Shown: positions 33,556 to 41,431 of the stretch, in pieces
Layout of the letters: every line of letters starts with the position of its first letter
Numbering within the stretch: position 1 is the first letter of the stretch
Assembly: GCA_011364975.1 (NCBI GenBank)
Contig: RDOE01000021.1
Span: 1-43,029, forward strand
Direction: 5' to 3'
Origin: Promethearchaeota archaeon
GTDB lineage: Archaea; Asgardarchaeota; Lokiarchaeia; Sigyniarchaeales; SOKP01
Length of the DNA: 43,029 nt
Made by a program: the position numbers and the translations under genes
The notes under the pieces: model-generated
Databases searched by the model: none
The model's input: only the letters and a program-made list of their open reading frames with translations
What the model was told of the DNA's origin: nothing

Positions 33556-34500
33556 TTGGAGTATTTAGAGAAACATTCTACTGAAATGCATAAAATATTA
33601 TTTACTGGTCTTGATACTGCAGGCAAATCGAGTATTATATACGCACTTAAAAGAGAATTTTCTCAAATAATAAATATTGAACCAACTAAAGGCATATCCA
33701 GAAGGATTTATAGGTTACTTGACAATGAAATAAGTGAATGGGATTTAGGAGGTCAAGAAAAATATCGTATCTCTTATCTGAAAAACCCAAATGTATATTT
33801 TGACGGAACAGAAGTTGCAATTTATGTCATTGATGTCTTAAATAATGCCAGAATATCTGAATCCTTGAGTTACTTAAAAGATGTGCTTTATCAATTTAAT
33901 ACATTAAAAATAAAGCCACCAATTAATGTTCTTTTTCATAAATGCGATCCTAATATAATTAGGAGTAAAGCTAATGAGATCGATAATACAATTGAAGATC
34001 TAACTAAACAAATTAAGGAGATCGCTAAAAATAGTGAACTGCACTTTTTCAGAACATCAATTTTTGATTTATATTCAATAATGAGTACTATATCTGAAAT
34101 TTTATTGCAACTTTACCCTAAAGCTCAGCTCGTTCAAAAAGCAATTAAAGAATTCGCTAAAAAATTAAATTGTCAAGGATTATTGATTATTGATAATAAT
34201 TCAATTATTATAGGCTCCTTTTTTGAAAATGATTCGGCTAAATTTCTTCTTCAAGAAAGCATCCAATATTTTTTGACACTGAATGATTGCTTTCTTAAAT
34301 TAGGAAAGAGTGATGAAGATGATCAGATTCTAGCTCAAAAATTAGGCTATCACTTCCTATTTAAATCTATATTGTTGAAAGAAGGCGATTCTCCTTATCA
34401 TTTCTCAATAATAAAAGAGCATAATCCCTATGAGTTATATTTTATTAAGAATGAAATTCAAACCTTTGTTGAACGATTAATTGATATAATTAAAAGATAA
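33556..34500 (+). CDS. Rag/Arf-like small GTPase with C-terminal roadblock/longin-like domain
   Basis: GLDTAGKSS, PT.G, WDLGGQ, HKCD (Rag-type G4), RTSIFD; C-terminal helix-GLLIIDNNSIIIGS pattern; the start may be the ATG at 33586. Confidence 0.85.
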   Translation: MEYLEKHSTEMHKILFTGLDTAGKSSIIYALKREFSQIINIEPTKGISRRIYRLLDNEISEWDLGGQEKYRISYLKNPNVYFDGTEVAIYVIDVLNNARISESLSYLKDVLYQFNTLKIKPPINVLFHKCDPNIIRSKANEIDNTIEDLTKQIKEIAKNSELHFFRTSIFDLYSIMSTISEILLQLYPKAQLVQKAIKEFAKKLNCQGLLIIDNNSIIIGSFFENDSAKFLLQESIQYFLTLNDCFLKLGKSDEDDQILAQKLGYHFLFKSILLKEGDSPYHFSIIKEHNPYELYFIKNEIQTFVERLIDIIKR

Positions 34501-37121: not shown

Positions 37122-37979
37122 CTATAACTCTTTTTTCATGCGAGTTCTGTGAAATTTTAACCCGATCTCATCAGCAGATGTTCCCATAGCTAATGCTAAC
37201 AATTCTGTGATATATAAGACAGGAATTTCATAATCTTTTTCGTATTTTTTGGATAAATCCCTTTGTCTTGTATCGAATTGTTGAAAGCAGGCAGGACAGT
37301 TAACAACTAACACATCAGCACCTACTTTAGCAATGCTATCCATTTTGATTTTTAGGTTTGCCATACCATGCTCTTCATAAGCATTGGTAACTGCTGAGCC
37401 ACAGCATAAAACTTCCTCCTCATAATTAACTACAGTTGCACCAGTAGCAGCGACAATTTCCTTTAAGTTCTTTGGACGCATTACATCATCAGATTCCATC
37501 CATTCACCTGGGCGCATATAATGACATCCAGGATGGACCGCTACTTTTAGTCCACTTAGTGGTTTGGTAACTGATGCTTTAACCTTGTCCAAATTATCCT
37601 TTAATACATCTACAAAATGCTTTACATCAATTGAACCCTTGAATTCTTTACCAATTTTGGCTAATTCCTTGTTGATTCTATTCTTCTTAAGTGAATCATG
37701 TTTTAATTGATGCTGCACACCTCTAAGGGTGTTGGCACATCCGTTGCATAATGAGATAATATCTTTACCTTCTGCTTCTGCTAAACATAAATTGCGGGCA
37801 CCAATCGCTAACCAGGCTTCGTTATCGAAGCTTTTCATTCCCGTAGGGTCTGGACAACAACTAAATGGCGCTTGAGACGTTTCAATTCCAACCTTATCGA
37901 AAACTTTTCTTGAAGCAGCTTCTATAAACGGAATTCTGTTTCCAATAGTACATCCTTCAAACATTTTAAATTCTGTCAT
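37122..37979 (-). CDS. hdrB: Heterodisulfide reductase subunit B
   Basis: Two CCG domains: EGC, SCCP, LCNGC; HPGCH, CCG, NCPAC..QFD. Confidence 0.93.
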   Translation of the reverse strand: MTEFKMFEGCTIGNRIPFIEAASRKVFDKVGIETSQAPFSCCPDPTGMKSFDNEAWLAIGARNLCLAEAEGKDIISLCNGCANTLRGVQHQLKHDSLKKNRINKELAKIGKEFKGSIDVKHFVDVLKDNLDKVKASVTKPLSGLKVAVHPGCHYMRPGEWMESDDVMRPKNLKEIVAATGATVVNYEEEVLCCGSAVTNAYEEHGMANLKIKMDSIAKVGADVLVVNCPACFQQFDTRQRDLSKKYEKDYEIPVLYITELLALAMGTSADEIGLKFHRTRMKKEL

Positions 37980-37994: not shown

Positions 37995-38501
37995 TTATTT
38001 TAGCTTTTTTTCAGCTCCAATATTTTTCATTAAGGTTTGCAATTCTCCAACATTAGGCTCTGCAACCGCAGGTAATCCTAATTGTTGTCGTCTTCGCTCA
38101 ATAGCAGGCTGTGAAGGAATCGCTTTAGAACTCTCGAAGATTGCTTTTGCTTGAGAATAAATAAATTCGGGCGCATTCCCTTGTTCCGCAGATTTATTCT
38201 TTAAAAATGTAAAAATCTCAGTCAACTCAATATGTTGAGGACATACTTCATCGCAGGTATCACATACAGTACAGCCCCAGATCGCCAATGGATCTTGAGA
38301 AAAGATCACATCTTTATACCCTAAAAGCGCAGCTAAGATATTCGCTCTTGGATCATAACCAGTTGTGGTATAAAAATCCTTGGATACAGCAGAAACTGGA
38401 CAATTATCTGTACATCTCGAACATTGATAGCAATATTTTATTAAATCAGAGCTCACATGCTTATCCATTACTTCCTTTCGGAATTCAAAATCAACCATCA
38501 T
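37995..38501 (-). CDS. hdrC: Heterodisulfide reductase subunit C
   Basis: CYQCSRCTDNCP and WGCTVCDTCDEVCP (2x[4Fe-4S]); directly upstream of hdrB. Confidence 0.92.
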   Translation of the reverse strand: MMVDFEFRKEVMDKHVSSDLIKYCYQCSRCTDNCPVSAVSKDFYTTTGYDPRANILAALLGYKDVIFSQDPLAIWGCTVCDTCDEVCPQHIELTEIFTFLKNKSAEQGNAPEFIYSQAKAIFESSKAIPSQPAIERRRQQLGLPAVAEPNVGELQTLMKNIGAEKKLK

Positions 38502-38551
38502 GTTTTATTCACATTTTCCGATTTTTCATTCATTTTTCTTTTACATATATA

Positions 38552-38621
38552 TTGGCTTTAACCCGGGCATGGGCAGTTATATCCAATCTATTATTTTTAT
38601 TGGATATTCATCCTAAGCCAA
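38552..38621 (-). promoter_or_regulatory. Candidate SECIS element (eukaryote-like kink-turn hairpin) overlapping the vhuU stop
   Basis: mRNA: GGC(UU)AG-GAU-GA-AUAUCCAAU-AAAAAUAAUAG-AUUGGAUAU-AA-CUGCC; perfect 9-bp stem, A-run loop, AUGA core; the 3' side has AA rather than the canonical GA. Confidence 0.6.
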
Positions 38622-38760
38622 CGTTCAACTTTCGAGAGTAAATCTCTTCACCGTTTTCTTTAACTACGGTTAAATGAGCCGCGCAGCTTAATCAACAATC
38701 AAAACAGCGCACGATCATTTCCAACAGATTTACTACTCCCTCAGGCACGTCTTCACTCAT
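38608..38760 (-). CDS. vhuU: Selenocysteine-containing [NiFeSe]-hydrogenase subunit VhuU (not in the ORF track)
   Basis: Manual translation MSEDVPEGVVNLLEMIVRCFDC-U-LSCAAHLTVVKENGEEIYSRKLNVGLG*; in-frame TGA at 38692-38694 sits at the first ligand of the D-x-[C/U]-x2-C-x2-H motif that VhuA lacks; alternative GTG start at 38772 after GGAG. Confidence 0.9.
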
Positions 38761-38798
38761 TTTAATATTCACGTTTTCTCCTTTAATTTTTATATTGT

Positions 38799-40103
38799 TT
38801 ATTTAATCCAAGGTTCGGGTAGTTTTAAACCATCCAAGGCCTTGTCTTCAAATACCTGCTTAGCAACATGCATTAATGTTTTCTCGATCCCTGCAATATT
38901 ATGATTTGTCGCCACAAGAAGGTTAGCTTTCTTACATAGCCCATCAGCATCTGAAAAGATATGATACAAAAGAAGACCTCTCGGGGCTTCAACTACGCCC
39001 ACACCATCAGCTTCTCTGGGTTCAACATCTAAGGTCTTGCAATCAGGATTTACTATATCTGGATCTTGAAGCAATGTGGCAATCATTTCAATGGATTCGA
39101 CCAATTCAATTAAACGCGCCCAATGATAAGCAAAAGTGAAATGGGGAGTATTCCCAATTTTTGCTCTCATTGCTTTTAATGCCTCATCTGCTAAGGGAGT
39201 AGCCATCTTATCTGCAGCATTTATCATTGCTAAAGTATTTGCCCTATATATACCATCTGGATATCCTGCGGGTTTATAATACATGTGAGTTGCATAAGAA
39301 TGCTCCGGAATATGCTCTCCCAGTGCTTCCAAATATTTTTGAGGAGGATAATCAAATTTCTGACCATCAGGACTTACAATTCGAATATCTCCTTCGTAAA
39401 TATCATGAACACCGTTTTTTGTCATACCAGCATAGTAAGTTGGCACTACACCAACATTAGCTACGACATCCCAATAATCCTCGACAACCTTTAAGCCAAT
39501 ATCAACTGTCTTTTTTGACCACTCAACTTGGTCCTCAATCTGCTTTAAGAATTTATCCCGAGCGGTTTCATCCATCGCCTTTTTCATCCCACCAACGATT
39601 GCACTTATGGGATGGACAGATTTACCACCGATCTCGGCACATAACTTCTGCCCGAAGTCCATCATCTTTAAAGCCATAGCCCCTACATCAGGCATCTTGC
39701 TAATGACATGAACAACATTCCTTAACGCGGGGTCTGCAAAAGGTCCTAATAGAAAATCTGGTGCAGCTAATGCATAAAAATGTAATGCATGAGAACTGTA
39801 TTGTTTTGCATTCATGAGCAATTGTCTTAATTTATATGCAGGTTCGGGAATTTGAACACCCCATGCATCTTCTACTGCTTTAGTTGGAGCTATATGATGA
39901 GGTATTGGACAGATTCCACAGATTCTAGGAGTAATCCTTGGGATGTGTTCACAATATCGACCCTCAAGAAACTTTTCAAAGAATCTTGTGGATGTGATAT
40001 TGAACTGCACATCCTTAACTTTGCCATCATCGCTTAGGACTAATCTTAAACCACCATGTCCCTCTAATCGAGTGACTGGTTCTACTTCTATCACTTTATC
40101 CAT
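38799..40103 (-). CDS. vhuA: Group 3c [NiFe(Se)]-hydrogenase large subunit, split type (lacks C-terminal L2 motif)
   Basis: TRLEGHG, RFFEKFL.GR, RICGICP..H (L1), EAPRG.L, LLVAT.HN; ends PEPWIK with no DPCxxC. Confidence 0.93.
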   Translation of the reverse strand: MDKVIEVEPVTRLEGHGGLRLVLSDDGKVKDVQFNITSTRFFEKFLEGRYCEHIPRITPRICGICPIPHHIAPTKAVEDAWGVQIPEPAYKLRQLLMNAKQYSSHALHFYALAAPDFLLGPFADPALRNVVHVISKMPDVGAMALKMMDFGQKLCAEIGGKSVHPISAIVGGMKKAMDETARDKFLKQIEDQVEWSKKTVDIGLKVVEDYWDVVANVGVVPTYYAGMTKNGVHDIYEGDIRIVSPDGQKFDYPPQKYLEALGEHIPEHSYATHMYYKPAGYPDGIYRANTLAMINAADKMATPLADEALKAMRAKIGNTPHFTFAYHWARLIELVESIEMIATLLQDPDIVNPDCKTLDVEPREADGVGVVEAPRGLLLYHIFSDADGLCKKANLLVATNHNIAGIEKTLMHVAKQVFEDKALDGLKLPEPWIK

Positions 40104-40114
40104 TCTTTTATCAC

Positions 40115-41431
40115 CTATCTATAATTTTTATTTGCAGCTAATGTGAACTTCTCACTAAAGCCGATCTTGTCTTTGATTTGACTTAAGAGATCTTCTTTGC
40201 TTAAAGCTACATTAAATTGTTTCGTTGCTATATCAGCAAATCGTTCGGCTTGATTAACGTTCCACTCTGTTTGACCGAAGCAACCAGAGCAGGGGGCGTT
40301 AACCCGTATACACATACCACCACAGCCAGCTCTTGTAATAGGTCCTGCACATAGATATCCTTGTTCAATAAAACAGTCCTCCATATTTGGAAGGCCTTCA
40401 TAATCACGTTTAACACGAGTCATTTGAGATTTGCTTCCAATAATTCGGGGACATGTATCACAAACATTTGATATCTCAGTGAACTCTCTATGATCTCGTA
40501 AGTATGCCATTACTTTAGAGGCTATCTCTGCAGTATCACTTGGAATATTTGCTAATGAAGTTGAAGCTTTTCCATGAATTTTAATTTGTTTTAAGATGTC
40601 TGCGGATAAGTCAAATCCTGCCATTAAGGGAACGTTTAGGAAAAGAGGTAAAAATTCATATACACTTTTTTTATTTCCTGAACTTAATCCCCCAATATTT
40701 CCAACCATTTCTTTCAATTTTGCGGTTCGAGAAGATACGGTTTTTGCAGGTCCTAAGCATCCTACACAAGGTTTACCATTATTAGTACATTTTAATTCAC
40801 AACCAGTACTAGTAATAGGACCGAAACAGAGAACACCTTTCTCCAATAAACAATTTTCATTATTTAAAGAGCAATTATTACAAAATGCCGAATCTGCCAT
40901 AGGTTGTGGCTTTTGACCTAGCAAAAATGCAACAGCACTAATAATGGCTTCAGGTTTTGGAGGACATCCGCTTATATATGCATCAATTGAAATTACTTCG
41001 TCTGTAGGAACTATTTTTGAAGCAAAACCGGGCATATGTTCTTTAGGTTCATGTGGACTTTCATTAGTTATGGATTCCGCTTGTTCGAATTTGCGCTTAA
41101 CAGAATCTTGAATATCCCACACATTAGCTAACCCATGAACATTTCCGTAGCAAGAGCAAGAGCCGAAAGCAATTATTAATTGGCATTTTGCTCGCATTAG
41201 TTTTACATTTTCTACATCTTCGTTAGTTCGTAATGAACCCTCCACGAATCCGACAAGAATATCACCATCGGGTCTAGCTTTCAAAGAGTCATGTTTAAAG
41301 TCAACAACAGCTGGCCAATATACAATATCGAGTGCTGGGAGAATTGGCAACAATCCTAAATGTGCATTTAATAAGGATTGATGACAACCCCAACAATCTG
41401 ATCCTTGCATAAAAGCTACTTTTACTGCCAT
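40115..41431 (-). CDS. vhuG: Group 3c hydrogenase small subunit with duplicated C-terminal Fe-S module
   Basis: CWGC, EGS, FGSC, GCPP proximal ligands, then two 8-Cys modules CxxC..C..C.GPIT..GC...C.....PCxGC. Confidence 0.9.
   Translation of the reverse strand: MAVKVAFMQGSDCWGCHQSLLNAHLGLLPILPALDIVYWPAVVDFKHDSLKARPDGDILVGFVEGSLRTNEDVENVKLMRAKCQLIIAFGSCSCYGNVHGLANVWDIQDSVKRKFEQAESITNESPHEPKEHMPGFASKIVPTDEVISIDAYISGCPPKPEAIISAVAFLLGQKPQPMADSAFCNNCSLNNENCLLEKGVLCFGPITSTGCELKCTNNGKPCVGCLGPAKTVSSRTAKLKEMVGNIGGLSSGNKKSVYEFLPLFLNVPLMAGFDLSADILKQIKIHGKASTSLANIPSDTAEIASKVMAYLRDHREFTEISNVCDTCPRIIGSKSQMTRVKRDYEGLPNMEDCFIEQGYLCAGPITRAGCGGMCIRVNAPCSGCFGQTEWNVNQAERFADIATKQFNVALSKEDLLSQIKDKIGFSEKFTLAANKNYR

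Follow-up and report, generated by a model that had tools for sequence, protein, structure and literature searches.

A lokiSECIS at the end of vhuU in a Lokiarchaeia genome overlaps the gene's stop codon and may fold, with a conserved third hairpin, as a three-way junction

RESULTS AND DISCUSSION

A hydrogenase operon with a selenocysteine codon in vhuU

The window analyzed here is the whole 43,029-nucleotide stretch of contig RDOE01000021.1, which belongs to a genome of the Lokiarchaeia. On its minus strand lies an operon in five parts: a hydrogenase small subunit (41431..40115; Pfam Oxidored_q6), a large subunit without its C-terminal end (40103..38799; NiFeSe_Hases), vhuU (38760..38608; 50 residues plus the stop in translation), an HdrC-like ferredoxin (38501..37995), and an HdrB-like protein with CCG domains (37979..37122). 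The ATG of vhuU is at 38760-38758, the UGA assigned to selenocysteine (Sec) is codon 23 (38694-38692), and the stop, also UGA, is codon 51 (38610-38608). The translated product, MSEDVPEGVVNLLEMIVRCFDC-U-LSCAAH...NVGLG-stop, carries the motif D-C-U-x-x-C-x-x-H, in which U corresponds to the UGA at codon 23 and stands where the C-terminal metal-binding motif has its first cysteine. The gene encodes the small C-terminal piece of the [NiFeSe] hydrogenase large subunit. A Pfam search with the 50-amino-acid VhuU peptide alone gave no match, and a VhuU search found homologs in 269 of 400 genomes of the phylum.

Anatomy of the element at the 3' end of vhuU

The last codons of vhuU and the spacer behind them can be drawn as an RNA element in which an outer stem (P1), a 2-bp helix AG/CU (Pc), a bulge GAU, a G.A and an A.A pair, and an inner stem (P2) follow one another, with a third hairpin (P3) placed between the CU and the 3' strand of P1. 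The 5' strand of P1, GUUGGCUU (38615..38622, on the minus strand like every part of the element), lies within the last vhuU codons (Val-Gly-Leu) and pairs with positions 38558-38551, where the 3' strand AAGCCAAU (38551..38558) occupies the vhuU-hdrC spacer. Pc, a canonical helix of 2 bp directly below the kink-turn bulge that was recognized from pair counts in homologs, joins AG (38613..38614) to CU (38575..38576). The 5' side of the predicted kink-turn (38608..38612) consists of the bulge G-A-U (38612-38610) followed by G38609 and A38608. AUGA itself occupies 38611-38608 and contains the stop codon (38610-38608), which is the first in-frame stop after Sec; the original prediction that the core of the element is vhuU's own UGA stop is confirmed in this respect. 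P2, which would be the non-canonical helix of the kink-turn, has 9 of 9 pairs formed between AUAUCCAAU (38599..38607) and AUUGGAUAU (38579..38587). It carries an apical loop of 11 nt, AAAAAUAAUAG (38588..38598), that begins with five A residues and ends in AG, so that the perfect 9-bp stem and AAAAA-led loop were found exactly where they had been predicted. On the 3' side of the core stands AA (38577..38578), A38578 facing A38608 and A38577 facing G38609, and beyond Pc the third hairpin P3 (38561..38574) pairs GCCC with GGGU around the loop AUGCCC.

P3 is present in the minimum-energy fold of 38630-38540, which is a three-way junction composed of the outer stem, the 9-bp hairpin, and the small GC hairpin. 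The single-sequence fold is modest (-21.2 kcal/mol; z of -2.14), and 11 of 200 shuffled sequences fold equally well. The succession of elements is that of a kink-turn (the AG/CU helix, the 3-nt bulge GAU, G.A then A.A, and then P2), with a geometry that is predicted only. A canonical kink-turn has A.G at the position where the vhuU core has A.A, and most SECIS elements have GA 3' of the stem, where the vhuU element has AA.

The base at 38578, on which the non-canonical AA depends, was checked as A versus G in sequencing runs, which were examined as assembled contigs. The A was upheld, with no variant in any of the four runs covering the position. A38578 is not an error, since it is without a variant in every covering run and since, among 62 aligned elements, 23 have AAC and 38 have GAC after the stem. 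In a metatranscriptome library, one contig of 208 nt runs over 38471-38678, from inside vhuU into hdrC, with zero differences; it shows presence in the library only and is compatible with a single transcript. Two metagenome runs showed a several-fold rise in summed contig depth over 38573-38656, the part of the window that holds the SECIS and the final codons of vhuU, and numerous short contigs terminate in it, which is consistent with a stretch common to several co-occurring relatives that tangles the assemblies.

The vhuU element is a published lokiSECIS

Mariotti et al. (2016) described the lokiSECIS as AUGA before a 9-bp stem with an 11-nt loop, in which adenines are preferred at the first five positions and the final G is ultraconserved; 3' of the stem there is GA or, in their words, "AA in VhuU," and in VhuU.1 the AUGA serves as the stop codon (PMC4989117). 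Huang et al. (2024) reported that UGA stops often overlap the AUGA motif in Lokiarchaeia, that AUGA_AA variants occur in frhA (vhuU) genes with a GA_AA pairing still able to kink, and that UGG_CCA-type pairs make up a "lower stem" of the frhA elements (PMC11227280), a description that the outer stem P1 fits here. The published lokiSECIS, or type I eSECIS-like frhA/vhuU element, and the element at this locus are alike in the AUGA, the 9-bp stem, the 11-nt loop, the AA, the UGA stop, and the location at the 3' end of the gene. The position, the AUGA, the stem with its loop, the AA, and compensatory changes (below) are all found at vhuU, and Sec insertion is the predicted function. Because these two papers describe the same features, the overlap, and a minimal distance, the finding is already known: the vhuU element is the published lokiSECIS, and the stop overlap, the AA core, and the idea of a switch are already in print. 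The eukaryote-like SECIS elements that the original prediction gave as known from Lokiarchaeota are borne out by the same papers, and the AA in place of GA agrees with the published VhuU form. The published text describes a stem-loop with a lower stem and an internal loop; the core of the vhuU element is identical, and a third hairpin is added here. The text of a 2026 review holds nothing further on structure (PMC13188914).

With eukaryotic SECIS elements (the Rfam clan of RF00031, characterized by an AUGA...GA quartet and an AAR apical motif), the vhuU element shares the 5' AUGA, a 3' purine-A dinucleotide, unpaired adenines at the start of the loop, and nine pairs above the core, as well as the 3' location and, by analogy for vhuU, a presumed action on an upstream UGA from a distance (PMC4989117). 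It differs from them in having A.A rather than A.G, in overlapping both the coding sequence and the stop, and in the hairpin inserted on the 3' side of the "internal loop." The GA/GA quartet (UGA...GA) of the eukaryotic elements is absent, the 3' side in vhuU being AA. An Infernal-type check with eukaryotic SECIS models brought no match in the window: Rfam searched at gathering score returned nothing over its whole length, SECIS_1 included, and a search of 38350-38850 up to an E value of 10 returned no SECIS family.

The layout is reminiscent of a k-junction, in which a third helix is inserted in the non-bulged strand of a kink-turn (Wang, Daldrop, Huang, and Lilley 2014; PMC4005666). A k-junction is further marked by coaxial stacking of this helix on the C helix and by the standard hydrogen bonds across the strands. 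The likeness is topological only: P3 belongs to the non-bulged strand, at a distance of two nucleotides behind the A opposite the G of UGA, and is closed by P1. Where the C helix would continue at the loop, the k-junction of the TPP riboswitch has the third helix in its place; in the vhuU element, kink and junction are set apart by a C helix of 2 bp, AG/CU.

Kt-23 of Thelohania solenopsae, which was reportedly described by Schroeder et al. in 2012 as a kink-turn whose second pair is A.A, shares with the vhuU element a G.A then an A.A beside a 3-nt bulge, although its context is ribosomal RNA. C/D-box sRNAs also form a kink-turn, from a C box RUGAUGA and a D box CUGA. The GGAUGA of vhuU resembles a C box, and Rfam gave weak matches to three C/D-box snoRNA families (E values of 1.5 to 9.7), so that another kink-turn RNA of this kind had to be considered together with a hairpin in the vhuU-hdrC spacer that would serve termination or processing. 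The snoRNA matches score only 14.7 to 20.2 bits against gathering scores of 43 to 70 and were rejected as chance or kink-turn likeness. Moreover, no CUGA D box follows the stem and no T-run follows the hairpin, the element accompanies Sec-type genes only and is missing from a Cys-type homolog (L056, discussed below), and the same motif stands behind unrelated selenoprotein genes. We therefore find an origin as a C/D-box RNA, terminator, or processing hairpin scarcely credible and continue with the SECIS reading.

Methanococcus-type archaeal SECIS elements are built differently, with a GAA_A bulge between two GC-rich stems. They share with the vhuU element a place in the 3' untranslated region (UTR) near the stop, and they serve vhuU and vhuD orthologs. 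On the minus strand between 37000 and 41500, the GAA_A pattern gave 0 matches, the pattern being loose enough to give a mean of 2.8 in 30 shuffles. The VhuD elements of Methanococcales carry AUGA and GAC/AAC (PMC4989117).

Covariation places P1 below the kink-turn

The 3' regions of 56 family-f1 vhuU genes were aligned with MAFFT. Changes on both sides were seen in 7 of the 9 pairs of P2 and in 3 of the 8 pairs of P1, and the hairpin is thus conserved in these 3' regions with compensatory changes, as the original prediction would have it. In this alignment 94.9% of cells are paired versus at most 50.6% when the partners are slid, and 0 of 500 shuffles reached the observed values. Synonymous changes in the last codons are matched in the 3' UTR: at the GGC/GGU codon the pair is CG in 34 genes, UA in 17, and UG in 3, with 2 unpaired, and at the Val codon (GUU/GUA/GUC) it is UA in 51, AU in 4, and CG in 1. 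In Pc, the G-C pair is present in 56 of 56 sequences and the A-U pair in 44 of 56.

These data bear directly on a simpler, two-helix SECIS, with the lower helix first proposed, GGC-UU-AG/CUGCC, directly beneath the kink-turn and with an outer stem and a GC-rich patch that are incidental. Its five pairs are 87.1% paired in the 56 homologs, and its two bulge-adjacent pairs are the well-kept ones of Pc. However, the C of GGC covaries with its outer partner and not with the proposed inner one, with which it forms CG in 21 sequences, UG in 17, and UA in 2 and is unpaired in 16. The minimum-energy fold likewise uses the outer stem and P3, and the three-helix layout recurs with different sequences in the elements of other genes. 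A two-helix element is accordingly improbable. What stood of the proposed lower helix is the pair of base pairs AG/CU next to the bulge; the GGC/GCC part did not stand. The outer stem UUGGCUU/AAGCCAA, which had been offered as an alternative, proved to be P1, the closing helix backed by covariation, and the GC-rich patch noticed inside it turned out to be the conserved hairpin P3. Comparison of sequences thus supports an element closed by P1 rather than by the GGC/GCC lower helix and arranged as a putative three-way junction on a kink-turn.

A second alignment, of 62 elements, was fitted to the covariance model introduced below and was drawn from a larger search (66 of 73 sources, the seven left out being near-identical loci of the same genus). 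It leans to the structure of the model, and within that limit it has changes on both sides in 22 of 23 pairs (8 of 8 in P1, 2 of 2 in the 2-bp helix, 9 of 9 in P2, and 3 of 4 in P3), with 94.7% of cells paired versus at most 47.6% when slid. The G-C pair of Pc is present in 61 of the 62 elements.

Family-f1 vhuU elements that carry GA after the stem come in two forms, with an additional A behind AUGA (AUGA-A-stem) or with U.U as the first pair, and neither is seen in elements that carry AA. This suggests that a linked change at the stem base may have given rise to the AA form.

Elements of the same kind behind other genes

The 3.74-Mb genome contains 211 matches to AUGA followed by a 9-bp stem (at most 1 mismatch) and an 11-nt loop, of which 7 show the full signature: the stem is followed by a purine-A, the loop opens with an A-rich stretch, and its last base is G. 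This specificity speaks against chance much more strongly than the single-sequence fold does. All seven lie at the end of an open reading frame (ORF) with an in-frame UGA: vhuU, three VhuD-like ORFs, and three others. The six sibling elements of this genome (G000) are at C69:3793-3759(-), C145:10151-10185(+), C149:49572-49606(+), C154:20448-20482(+), C169:64337-64371(+), and C173:2704-2738(+). The VhuD-like ORFs have two in-frame UGAs each. The other three are an ORF of 80 amino acids with a hydrophobic stretch and the sequence ..GDGTUGCAS..., one of 158 amino acids with two adjacent UGAs (..VGCUUEK..), and one of 38 amino acids with CxxC..CxxC and U as its last residue.

A covariance model was built from 53 distinct f1 vhuU elements with the three-helix structure. 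It found the six sibling elements at full length (E values of 1.7e-9 to 4.4e-5), and it did the same for the element of locus L058, from family f3 of the same order (E value of 1.2e-5), and for 12 of 12 elements of family f31 (E values of 7.7e-7 to 9.3e-3). In the whole-genome search with this model, 150 of 5839 candidates were scored, with 3 matches, and the sibling elements were then searched individually with the filters off. The larger search gave one match per locus; at its threshold (E value of 0.01), three f31 loci (L063, L067, and L069) and the Cys-type L056 fell below the cut. The vhuU locus of the window (L001; 37111-40260) has exactly one match. A rival SECIS elsewhere in the transcript was also looked for, and neither the model nor the GAA_A pattern revealed a second SECIS-like element on the operon strand.

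Matches to the SECIS pattern lie two or three together, 0.4 to 2.5 kb apart, at G155:C53:11863-12821, G145:C134:6018-8573, and G177:C24:226484-227218. Their stems are near-identical, of the AUAUCUUUC/GAAAGAU type, which suggests that these clusters may be tandem arrays of small selenoprotein genes with one element each.

A tRNA-Sec-like gene with the anticodon UCA is present in the same genome (L080:1498-1619 on the minus strand, corresponding to C106, ~34342-34428) and has, as read by eye, a long variable arm, a 4-bp T stem, and a 9-bp acceptor. It scores 40.3 bits with Rfam tRNA-Sec, which is below the gathering score of 47, and it has ~35 extra nucleotides between the two D-stem strands that look like an intron in the D loop. 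ARAGORN found 10 tRNAs in the genome with no tRNA-Sec among them, and none in L080 either. The published Loki tRNA-Sec is reported to have its intron in the T arm (PMC5330540). Only two ORFs with an L7Ae domain were found in the genome, and the text of Mariotti et al. reports no SBP2 homolog (PMC4989117).

A conserved third hairpin

Within the f1 vhuU set, P3 shows no compensatory changes, although 88% of its cells are paired. The three compensatory pairs in the model-fitted alignment appear once the SECIS elements of other genes and those of family f31 are included. The stems of P3 and P1 differ in sequence among elements (examples for P3 are CCU/AGG, AACC/GGUU, and ACCC/GGGU), and the third hairpin is also present in the six sibling elements of the genome.

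A pattern that specifies the core and loop only (ATGA, N9, AAAAA, N4, AG, N9, GAC), and not P3, was searched in 61 genomes of the family and gave 131 matches in 51 genomes versus 8 for the reversed pattern. Among the matches listed, 30 loci, one per genome, supplied 31 distinct elements, and 29 of these have at least 7 of the 9 P2 pairs. In 24 of the 29, a hairpin with 4 bp or more and a loop containing GC begins no farther than 5 bases from the GAC, versus 5.3% of 2,900 shuffled downstream sequences, and P1 is formed in addition, with 5 bp or more and in the expected register, in 19 of the 29 versus 2.4% of shuffles, several of the 29 being orthologous to one another or vhuU itself in related genomes, so that the cases are not independent. 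All five elements lacking such a hairpin (L091, L093, L104, L105, and L108) have a G-containing loop there. Four of them have GU loops (UUGUGAU, CGUGA, CUCGUGAA, and GAGUA), and L104 has GC in the loop but a stem of less than 4 bp in the register used. A loose search for P3 with P1 had a high background (49 of 204 non-signature matches, and 65% in a swap control), and therefore the tighter geometry with shuffles was used instead. A second model, made from the six non-vhuU elements, was discarded, as P3 was misaligned in two of them.

The vhuU elements of family f31 (L059 to L070) keep the stop within AUGA, have GA after the stem, and begin the loop with G/C-N-AAA. Their P3 is mostly CCC-CGCAA-GGG, that is, a GCAA tetraloop closed by C-G, and there is further outer pairing of AGGAG with CUCCU.

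The third hairpin goes unmentioned in the running text of PMC4989117, PMC11227280, and PMC13188914, to which the comparison extended. A literature search for SECIS elements with a three-way junction returned no paper on an Asgard element by title or abstract. The conserved third hairpin and the three-way-junction layout are possibly the sole new point in this analysis. We propose tentatively, and with a confidence somewhat short of even, that the Loki-type SECIS in general may be a k-junction-like three-way junction, with a conserved third hairpin on the unbulged strand whose loop nearly always contains GC (YGCA-like, or GCAA-like in f31) and with an outer helix that is often formed from the last codons of the gene.

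The stop codon within the core

Seventy vhuU loci spanning families f1, f3, and f31 were examined, 30 of them taken from among the matches listed and mostly of the same genus, and 40 picked from other genera and from the GC-rich family f31. An in-frame UGA occupies the Sec position in 69 of the 70. In each of these 69 Sec-type genes the first later stop is a UGA exactly 28 codons past Sec; it lies within AUGA in 67 of them and within UUGA and CUGA in the remaining two, and the overlap of stop and core suggested for vhuU is in this sense kept throughout. The one other locus (L056; G199:C96:4964-5666), from the same family, is a Cys-type homolog (CCLSC) that has the same terminal Gly and then TAA. 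No hairpin is present there (9.3 bits and an E value of 1.2 with the covariance model, in what is one single control), and its spacer to hdrC is ~45 nt versus 107 nt. L056 is a natural Sec-to-Cys (or Cys-to-Sec) pair for the same operon.

It could be supposed that Sec is inserted at the codon-51 UGA as well, or that this codon is read through, yielding a longer VhuU, and the stops that follow in frame in the window might be taken in its favor, the next four being UGA (at codons 77, 84, 90, and 92, before a TAA at 100), just as had been pointed out in the original prediction. That run is not conserved, however. The next in-frame stop in the 69 homologs is TAA in 44, TAG in 8, and TGA in 17, at distances that vary and behind read-through peptides that are not conserved, and the Cys-type homolog stops with TAA after the same Gly. 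A second Sec or readthrough at codon 51 is, on these grounds, very improbable. Because of the same stop counts, the downstream UGA run carries no message, and the four UGAs are incidental.

Conservation, covariation, and the restriction to Sec-type genes are the observed basis for reading the element as a SECIS. With high confidence, we regard it as a SECIS of the Loki type of Asgard archaea, a kink-turn-based three-way junction that would enable Sec insertion at codon 23 of vhuU while the UGA in its own AUGA is read as stop. By analogy with eukaryotic and archaeal SECIS elements, the folded element would recruit the Sec-specific elongation machinery to a ribosome paused at the UGA of codon 23. 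That codon is 84 nt upstream of the core, and 69 nt separate it from P1. Once UGA-51 is in the A site, the 5' strand of P1 and the core would already be unwound and inside the ribosome; the element would then be gone or too close, and codon 51 would be read as stop by the release factor. The proposal, in short, is that the release factor wins because the element cannot exist with UGA-51 in the A site. This "positional switch" is the same inference as the published minimal-distance model, whose authors reason that structural constraints preclude the action of a SECIS on nearby UGAs and thereby set a minimal distance (PMC4989117); either wording describes a presumed mechanism.

The overlap might, on the other hand, have no switching role. 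The SECIS would then act only on distant upstream UGAs, and compact genes would have pushed the element against the codon of the C-terminal Gly (GGA), which is the source of the A in AUGA. Among the six sibling elements the stop lies 6 to 38 nt ahead of AUGA in five and overlaps it in one, that of the C145 VhuD-like gene, in which the core UGA is the first in-frame stop as in vhuU; since the stop precedes AUGA in those five, overlap is not required. Mariotti et al. also word the matter as a minimal-distance requirement (PMC4989117). In contrast, the overlap in 69 of 69 Sec-type vhuU genes, from distant families of very different GC content, suggests more than accident, although a fixed length of the C-terminal tail may equally explain it. 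We think an overlap without any switching role rather unlikely, and it differs in emphasis only from the explanation preferred here.

Implications for selenocysteine decoding in Asgard archaea

The lokiSECIS-type element is one piece of evidence, already published, that Asgard archaea form a bridge between the selenocysteine systems of archaea and eukaryotes, and its presence at this locus shows that a subtle published feature can be recovered from raw sequence alone. The present analysis adds a much broader count of the overlap, seen in 69 of 69 Sec-type vhuU genes from 70 loci, with one Cys-type natural control, a corrected secondary structure, and the conserved third hairpin. In the k-junction-like reading, translation of the last five vhuU codons would dismantle the junction. 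Should the third hairpin matter, it belongs in the models and search patterns used for Asgard SECIS elements. If it is required for function, it would be a candidate recognition site for an archaeal SECIS-binding factor and a feature that was lost from the SECIS elements of eukaryotes.
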